NCBI RefSeq assembly: GCF_024502345.1 | Contig: NZ_JALDNN010000001.1 | Reading direction: 5' to 3' (one strand) | Length of the DNA: 64,000 bases | DNA from: Escherichia coli | GTDB taxonomy: Bacteria > Pseudomonadota > Gammaproteobacteria > Enterobacterales > Enterobacteriaceae | Part shown: positions 6,126 to 7,041 of the stretch, piece after piece | Numbering within the stretch: position 1 is the stretch's first letter | Layout: the number at the start of each line of letters is the position of its first letter | The notes under the pieces: model-generated | What the model saw: the letters and a program-made list of their open reading frames with translations, nothing else | Databases searched by the model: none | What the model was told of the DNA's origin: nothing | Position numbers and translations under genes: made by a program

Positions 6126-7041
6126 TCAAAATAGCCCGTTGCGTAATGCGTGTTCCAGGCTAATCCCGGGAAACCAATTAATATCTTCAGAAATACGGTT
6201 ATTACTTGCCGACCAGTCGGCGTGGGTTAATTCACGAATTTTCGAGCGGGTCAGCATAGGTTCTTTACCTGCCAGGCGACTCAACGCGGTACTGATATCC
6301 GCAAGGCAGGTGAGTACCGGCAGAGGAATACCAACCATTCGCACGGAACCGCAACGGACGTTGGCGGCAAGTTGCTGTATGCGTTGCCAGTCATAGCCGC
6401 TAGCGACGCCATCGCATAATTCATAGGTTTGCGTCTGTACAGTTTCGGCGCTTAACCACTGACCCACTGCTTGCGCAAAATCGGTGACGTGCAGGAAAGA
6501 GAGCTGTGTATCTGGTGCACCAAGTCGTGGCAGCAGGCCGCGCAGCATCCAGTCAAACAGCGGTTTTAACTCTTTATCGCCGGGACCATACACGGCTGTC
6601 GGGCGAAAAACGCCCAGCGTAATTTCGTCCGCCATTGCTGCCAGTCGTTGCTCGGCGACGTATTTGGATTTTGCATACCAGGAGAGCTCGGGATGGCGCG
6701 CCGCCAGCGAAGAGATAAACAGAAAACGTTGGCAAAAACCGCTCTCTTTTGCCGCCTTCATCAGGCACAGGCTGCCGTCAACGTTACAGCGGGTGAAAAT
6801 CTCTTCTTTGTGCCCGCGCACTTGCCCGGCGCAATGGACCACCGCGCTGGCTCCGGCAACCAGTTCGCTAAGTGAATGAGTATCTTCCAGCGAACCGCGC
6901 ACCCAGGTGAGATTATCATTGACGTGAGCGCGGGCAAGTACGCGTCAATGCGCGAACGTGAAAGCCGCGGGCGAGCAGGTTATCGATAATATATTTACCG
7001 ATAAACCCGGTAGCGCCCGTCACCGCGACAGTTTGATTCAT
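6126..7041 (-). pseudogene. NAD-dependent epimerase/dehydratase (SDR-type reductase), split by a frameshift near 6935-6945
   Basis: N-terminal Rossmann motif VAVTGATGFIGKYIIDNLLARGFHVRALTR ends at a stop at 6916-6918; continuation LARAHVNDNLTWVRGSLED...AVVHCAG is open in another frame; start ATG overlaps upstream stop. Confidence 0.6.

Follow-up and report, generated by a model that had tools for sequence, protein, structure and literature searches.

Genes for ceramide (sphingolipid) synthesis have been described as clusters in Caulobacter crescentus and in E. coli BL21. In Caulobacter they follow the order CC_1165 (aasR), CC_1164 (cerR), CC_1163 (acpR) and CC_1162 (spt), with cerS, LptF2/LptG2 and a flippase near the ceramide cluster (PMC11324152), and CerR has been described as an NDUFA9 homolog (PMC11087976). 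In BL21, ECD_02850 to ECD_02854 correspond to aca (yghO), aasR, epi, acpR and spt, and E. coli AasR, AcpR and SPT were shown experimentally to make 3-oxo-sphinganine (Padilla-Gomez et al. 2022, PMC9386255). [quoted passage not shown] The legend to Figure 9 of the same paper lists CC_1164 and ECD_02852 as homologs under the name epi. Our search of the literature under the gene name yghO gave nothing on the sphingolipid cluster among the 15 titles listed.

We examined the same locus in a 64,000-nt stretch of E. coli DNA (contig NZ_JALDNN010000001.1, hereafter the window), where the gene order yghO / aasR-SDR-acpR-spt / lptG-lptF is that of BL21(DE3). The yghO gene is divergent and lies upstream of the cluster, which is followed on its downstream side by lptF/lptG, a member of the YtfJ family and a flippase-like gene. 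The features of the cluster are as follows.

9130 to 10271, plus strand: yghO, predicted N-acyltransferase, 'aca'/cerS homolog, with a private 1-bp deletion between 10160 and 10161; corresponds to ECD_02850.
7038 to 8726, minus strand: aasR homolog, fatty acyl-AMP ligase (FAAL) / specialised acyl-ACP synthetase, intact, matching NF006624 with 868 bits (cut-off 600); corresponds to ECD_02851.
6126 to 7041, minus strand: the whole frameshifted SDR gene, cerR/'epi' homolog and ortholog of BL21(DE3) ECD_02852, 916 nt against 915 nt when intact.
5846 to 6094, minus strand: acpR homolog, specialised acyl carrier protein (ACP) of 82 aa, intact; corresponds to ECD_02853.
4674 to 5846, minus strand: spt, serine palmitoyltransferase, intact, matching NF047599 with 599 bits (cut-off 500); corresponds to ECD_02854.
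4637 to 4671, minus strand: GC-rich hairpin with a 16-bp stem between the convergent spt and lptG stops, from a consensus scan only.
2493 to 4639, plus strand: second-copy lptF/lptG-like permease pair of the same accessory cluster, intact, paralleled in Caulobacter by LptF2/LptG2.

The hairpin likely marks the end of the aasR-cerR-acpR-spt transcription unit and acts as a bidirectional terminator. Counts of promoter-like and terminator-like sites showed no excess over shuffled sequences, and an Rfam scan of 4,000 to 11,500 on both strands detected no RNA family.

Read along the minus strand, FAAL (8726-7038), SDR (7041-6126), ACP (6094-5846) and spt (5846-4674) occupy the positions by which CerR ('epi') is recognized, the SDR gene lying between aasR and acpR-spt as it does in Caulobacter (PMC11324152). 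With its reading frame repaired, the protein matched NDUFA9 chains in the PDB (E = 7e-11 to 2e-10) and is thus of the same NDUFA9-like extended-SDR type as CerR, the E. coli protein by these PDB matches and CerR (CC_1164 / CCNA_01222) by its published description (PMC11087976). In alignments to NDUFA9 and bacterial NDUFA9-like SDRs, which covered query residues 4-295 for 9g83_P and 6-247 for NDUFA9 (E = 1e-11 to 1e-10), the glycine-rich motif is conserved (9g83_P, 7ar7_P), and the Y-x-x-x-K motif is aligned in 9g83_P and 3wj7_A. Unlike NDUFA9, the E. coli SDR is found in a lipid biosynthesis context rather than at a respiratory complex locus. We therefore refer to the gene as the E. coli cerR/'epi' homolog, a predicted ceramide/3-oxo-sphinganine reductase; its homology to CerR is taken from PMC9386255, and its activity, with 3-oxo-sphinganine or oxidised ceramide as substrate, is putative.

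The copy in BL21(DE3) shares locus, gene order and neighbours (yghO, FAAL, ACP, spt, lptG/lptF) with the window. It is intact and encodes 304 aa in a CDS of 915 nt, the length also of the intact reference CDS in strain USDA-ARS-USMARC-49610, and these two are 97.8% identical in nucleotide sequence. The window copy, by contrast, carries a +1 change after codon 35 and has a frameshifted yghO beside it; relative to Caulobacter CerR as well as to BL21, it is a pseudogene. The original prediction, made from the sequence of the window by itself, held that the Rossmann N-terminus of an SDR reductase ends at a stop at 6916-6918 while its continuation is open in another frame from about 6944. Both elements are present in the sequence, and the parts of the gene can be laid out as below.

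6916 to 7041, minus strand: N-terminal fragment of 41 codons plus TGA, containing the TGATGFIG motif, with its final six residues (CPRSRQ) out of frame.
6936 to 6937, minus strand: site of the +1 insertion, ACTTGCC in place of ACTGCC, either base being the extra one.
6916 to 6918, minus strand: premature TGA that results from the frameshift.
6126 to 6944, minus strand: the rest of the SDR gene in the other frame, bearing the catalytic Y122-x-x-x-K126 as well as the substrate-side domain.

The first open reading frame, MNQTVAVTGATGFIGKYIIDNLLARGFHVRALTRTCPRSRQ, runs from an ATG (7041-7039), which shares bases with the stop codon of the acyl-AMP ligase gene upstream, to the TGA at 6918-6916. The second frame, in which the preceding stop is at 6947-6945, is open from 6944 to a stop at 6128-6126 and carries on with ...ARAHVNDNLTWVRGSLEDTHSLSELV..., the remainder of the same SDR protein. 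Consistent with a single broken gene, positions 1-33 of the Pfam profile PF01370 (Epimerase) matched the 41-aa piece and positions 48-227 matched the 258-aa piece, so that one domain extends across the two frames and a chance pair of open reading frames is ruled out. The earliest possible restart in the second frame is a GTG at 6902-6900, which would give 258 aa; this version was not on record as a called product, the start picked by gene callers in metagenome contigs being one that gives 238 aa.

The cause of the break was located by alignment. Compared with four intact orthologs, the window has ACGCGTACTTGCCCGCGC where they have ACGCGTACTGCCCGCGC, which amounts to an extra A at 6936/6937 on the plus strand; this is the sole length difference (ACGCGTACTTGCCCGC in the window, ACGCGTACTGCCCGC in the orthologs) and also the only indel within the SDR gene relative to the nearest complete genome. 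The single-nucleotide indel that had been proposed near acgcgtacttgcccgcgc is thus found there as a +1 insertion. The change converts T to TT and does not fall in a long homopolymer. Deleting the extra base in silico restored a 304-aa protein identical at 303 of 304 residues to WP_219411624.1 (USDA-ARS-USMARC-49610) and different from more distant alleles at 8-15 residues. The otherwise undamaged state of the gene points to a recent event. In the annotated records that we inspected, among them BL21(DE3) and JJ1886, the intact ortholog is a single 915-nt CDS, not two genes, and the comparator annotation is likewise one CDS ('NAD-dependent epimerase/dehydratase family protein').

These observations show that a single T (on the minus strand) was inserted after codon 35; translation now stops at 41 residues. 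Residues 8-15 of the 41-aa fragment, TGATGFIG, conform to the TGxxGxxG Rossmann motif, and the intact ortholog scored 79 bits against PF01370 (cut-off 20.9). The downstream frame contains Y122-A-K-S-K126, an example of the catalytic Tyr-x-x-x-Lys motif, and this YAKSK aligns with YklSK of 3wj7_A (a putative oxidoreductase) and YaaSK of 9g83_P. One continuous polypeptide of ~300 residues with both motifs is not encoded in the window: the motifs are in different frames with the stop at 6918-6916 between them, which makes the gene a pseudogene of a family member and not a functional member. The break after residue 35 falls just beyond the second beta strand; of the Rossmann fold, the 41-residue peptide would retain the first strand-helix-strand unit and nothing further. 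With the glycine-rich peptide parted from the Tyr-x-x-x-Lys motif and the remainder of the protein, no active reductase is expected, and we infer from the sequence that enzyme activity has probably been lost through the frameshift. The frameshift also leaves ~790 nucleotides untranslated ahead of acpR-spt; speculatively, polarity from the premature stop may lower the expression of these two genes.

We considered whether the SDR could still work, by recoding (a +1 frameshift), by reinitiation at the GTG or by reassembly of a split enzyme from the 41-aa and ~240-258-aa pieces. The break lies in a loop, the downstream part is undamaged, the GTG is 13 nt past the premature stop and, by reading of the sequence, a GGAG precedes the 238-aa start used by the gene callers, all of which would favor residual function. 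However, restart products from either start are without the glycine-rich dinucleotide-binding motif, and we retrieved no precedent in which a fragment of 41 residues complements an extended SDR. Recoding is opposed by the distribution of the allele, given that the extra base was present in none of 4,118 orthologs; the frameshift is a derived allele, which leaves no room for the evolution of a matching recoding signal. The sequence, as we read it, also shows no CUU-UGA-type slippery site, no upstream Shine-Dalgarno stimulator and no long homopolymer, and the context of the stop is CAA-TGA, with no CUU-type slippery codon. Together these points make a working SDR very improbable. A programmed +1 ribosomal frameshift of the prfB type and a phase-variable tract were rejected on the same count of orthologs, given the T to TT change.

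A single extra base could also be an error in the record. A 61-nt query centred on the insertion was run against complete E. coli genomes, of which 4,118 have the locus; the insertion was in none of them, the best identity always being 60/61, and of a 1,001-nt query around the site 1,000 nt were matched in essentially every locus-bearing E. coli genome. The species representatives of GTDB, scanned for an exact pattern, yielded no match either. That the insertion is shared by no complete RefSeq E. coli genome, and that single-base indels are the commonest assembly error, would be compatible with an SDR gene that is really intact. In ENA and Logan, however, independent metagenome or SRA assemblies include at least 21 contigs that encode exactly this truncated 41-aa product, and the 10 contigs that we fetched (L005-L014) all have ACTTGCC. 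These contigs derive from short-read data of several projects, assembled with SPAdes, MEGAHIT or by Logan. Three of them, each from a different sample, match the window without a single difference, over 6,126 nt (L005), 4,846 nt (L008) and 3,513 nt (L013). Recurrence across independent assemblers, samples and projects indicates a heritable lineage allele and not an artefact of one record. The T to TT site is no long homopolymer, and the window shows just two coding indels of its own in 20.5 kb relative to the nearest genome, further arguing that a sequencing or assembly error is extremely unlikely. The choice between mutation and sequencing error that the original prediction had left to further data therefore falls to mutation. 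The frame is open in intact orthologs but broken here, and independent samples of the lineage share the lesion; the gene thus has the properties of a heritable frameshift pseudogene.

Some metagenome contigs that carry the insertion (L006, L007, L010, L020 and L021) show clusters of differences from the window. They are either strain-mixed assemblies or recombinants, or the insertion had a repeat origin, and an insertion arising more than once would hint at something besides neutral decay. The contig L010 (ENA ERZ19692932 contig k119_52372), which matches window positions 6663-7665, has the insertion on a background of 97.5% identity and then passes to genes for DHDPS and DNA ligase, which are unrelated; this contig probably represents a metagenome path that is chimeric or mixes strains. 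In this contig the variants nearest to the insertion are 129 and 159 nt away, farther than the assembler's k-mer of 119 reaches, and the mixing of strains during assembly suffices to explain it. A mutational hotspot at the site, raised by the divergent contigs L006, L010, L020 and L021, was set aside, as strain-mixed assembly explains them equally well.

The second lesion of the cluster, which the original prediction did not include any more than it did the ceramide context, is the frameshift in yghO. The deletion creates a new stop at 10201-10203, giving a protein of 357 aa instead of 380 with the final 37 residues replaced, and it was detected in none of the 4,367 complete genomes that have yghO. 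It is present in the contigs L017-L025, and the 357-aa allele, found in 80 collection blocks, is more widespread in public assemblies than the SDR insertion. The allele occurs together with an intact 304-aa SDR in three contigs (L018, L019 and L024) and with a split SDR in three others (L017, L020 and L021); L018 differs from the window by two substitutions and the insertion over 20,203 nt. The presence of the yghO deletion with an intact SDR in sister contigs indicates that the yghO frameshift came first and the SDR insertion later. The insertion is very recent and nested inside the yghO-deletion lineage, having occurred in an E. coli lineage that was already without a working yghO (the cerS homolog) through frameshift.

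Over 1-20.5 kb, the window is 99.1-99.25% identical to the nearest complete genome, and at the 99.25% match the two differ by seven single-base indels. Four of these are intergenic, one is an annotated frameshift of the comparator itself and two are the coding lesions of the window, in SDR and yghO. No other gene of the cluster is disrupted, and neither is the glc operon next to it. Among the intergenic differences from close relatives are the lengths of T-runs at 8892, upstream of the acyl-AMP ligase gene, and at 19872, downstream of glcA. The gene frameshifted in the comparator encodes a hypothetical protein of 274 aa in the cluster (window position 1425; 2066-2889 in comparator locus L015); it is intact in the window and annotated as 'frameshifted' in USDA-ARS-USMARC-49610, another sporadic lesion in the cluster.

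Taken with the recurrence of the allele, the nesting of the two lesions leads us to conclude that the insertion is very probably a genuine heritable loss-of-function mutation of the cerR/'epi' homolog in this lineage, part of the stepwise decay of a dispensable accessory pathway. Once the loss of yghO had broken the dihydroceramide branch, the reductase gene would no longer be shielded by selection. Relaxed selection is thus the cause that we infer for the SDR loss, an argument whose one premise is the yghO lesion. A random placement of two coding frameshifts, one each in SDR and yghO, has a probability of ~0.006, calculated post hoc from CDS lengths; this fits pathway-level relaxed selection after the first hit and is no proof of it.

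The same placement could be read as adaptive. Inactivation of the ceramide branch, first yghO and then cerR, might have been positively selected, with remodelled envelope lipids in a gut E. coli lineage as the outcome. In one possible version, the loss would rid the cell of a sphingolipid that makes it sensitive to cationic peptides or phages or that acts as a receptor; in another, the intact AasR-AcpR-Spt module persists with 3-oxo-sphinganine as its end product. Such selection would account for two private frameshifts within 20.5 kb that fall in the two predicted post-Spt enzymes and spare 15 neighbouring genes, and the Caulobacter ceramide genes do confer sensitivity to polymyxin B (PMC11324152). 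Four further cases in which other lineages of E. coli have independently suffered a disruption of this SDR gene, described below, and the 1,302 of 5,426 complete genomes with no match to the locus can be counted on the same side. However, relaxed selection after a neutral first hit predicts the same pattern, each disrupted allele is rare (the two that were tested are in no complete genome) and the SDR gene is intact in nearly all carriers. In the papers that we consulted, moreover, native sphingolipid production by E. coli is not documented. Selection for the loss is thus unlikely, and decay after the yghO lesion is the reading that we carry forward.

How often the locus is lost bears on this reading. 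The absence of any match in the 1,302 complete genomes shows that the cluster is dispensable, while the intact state of the SDR site in all complete carriers indicates that selection normally maintains the gene. The four other disruptions were found in draft and SRA assemblies (L030-L033, with the gene at approximately 2083-3010 of each locus) and consist of a 2-bp insertion in an error-rich assembly, a 13-bp duplication, a nonsense mutation at codon 121 and a 61-bp deletion. The codon 121 and 13-bp duplication alleles were absent from the complete-genome set. An initial reading that the SDR gene is inactivated frequently was withdrawn because neither of these two tested alleles occurs in complete genomes, and the events are sporadic. 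The SDR gene is normally kept where present and lost sporadically.

The event itself is of a known kind, a frameshift pseudogene, in a cluster already described in the literature, and not a new mechanism; taken alone, it is one more frameshift pseudogene among the accessory genes of E. coli. It shares with ordinary accessory pseudogenes annotated as 'frameshifted' by PGAP, such as the hypothetical gene of USMARC-49610 and appA/appB of G3/10, the single-base indel, the premature stop, an otherwise pristine sequence and restriction to a lineage. Nothing essential sets it apart from these; its extra feature is that a gene of the same pathway had already been hit. The lineage is thereby a natural double knockout (cerS-like yghO and cerR-like SDR) of a poorly understood E. 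coli sphingolipid cluster, and a nearly isogenic sister lineage has the yghO lesion only. Strains with the double and the single lesion could possibly serve as ready controls for whether E. coli makes ceramides and for the cost or benefit of doing so in the gut. For annotation, the 41-aa and 238-258-aa open reading frames, which automatic callers made into two proteins in metagenome contigs, belong merged as one pseudogene.

Downstream of glcA, the window departs from the usual arrangement. The sslE/yghJ gene normally found there is missing from 20500-25600, and its place is taken by a gene for a methyl-accepting chemotaxis protein (21400-23082, minus strand), a fragment of an IS3-family transposase (24079-24513) and a fragment of an integrase (24940-25548). 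A type I restriction-modification region follows at 26630-38400, with hsdR at 26630-29746 on the minus strand and a tyrosine recombinase gene at 37082-38404; the best E. coli matches to this region are ~95% identical and cover half of the stretch. From 39160 to 64000, the window contains a mobile island that recurs with 100% identity in E. coli G3/10 (847,851-871,551) and in an ST536 mussel isolate, where it adjoins cadC instead. The cargo of the island comprises a partial second cytochrome bd-II/appA set, ykgEFG, dld, a lactate permease gene, ISKpn26 and IS1. No spt or glc gene is annotated in G3/10 in the inspected interval of 800-849 kb. At 812-814 kb of that genome (L026), pitB and a dTMP-kinase gene (yghT-like) are followed directly by an IS1 element and island DNA, which suggests that this region was deleted there through an IS-mediated event.
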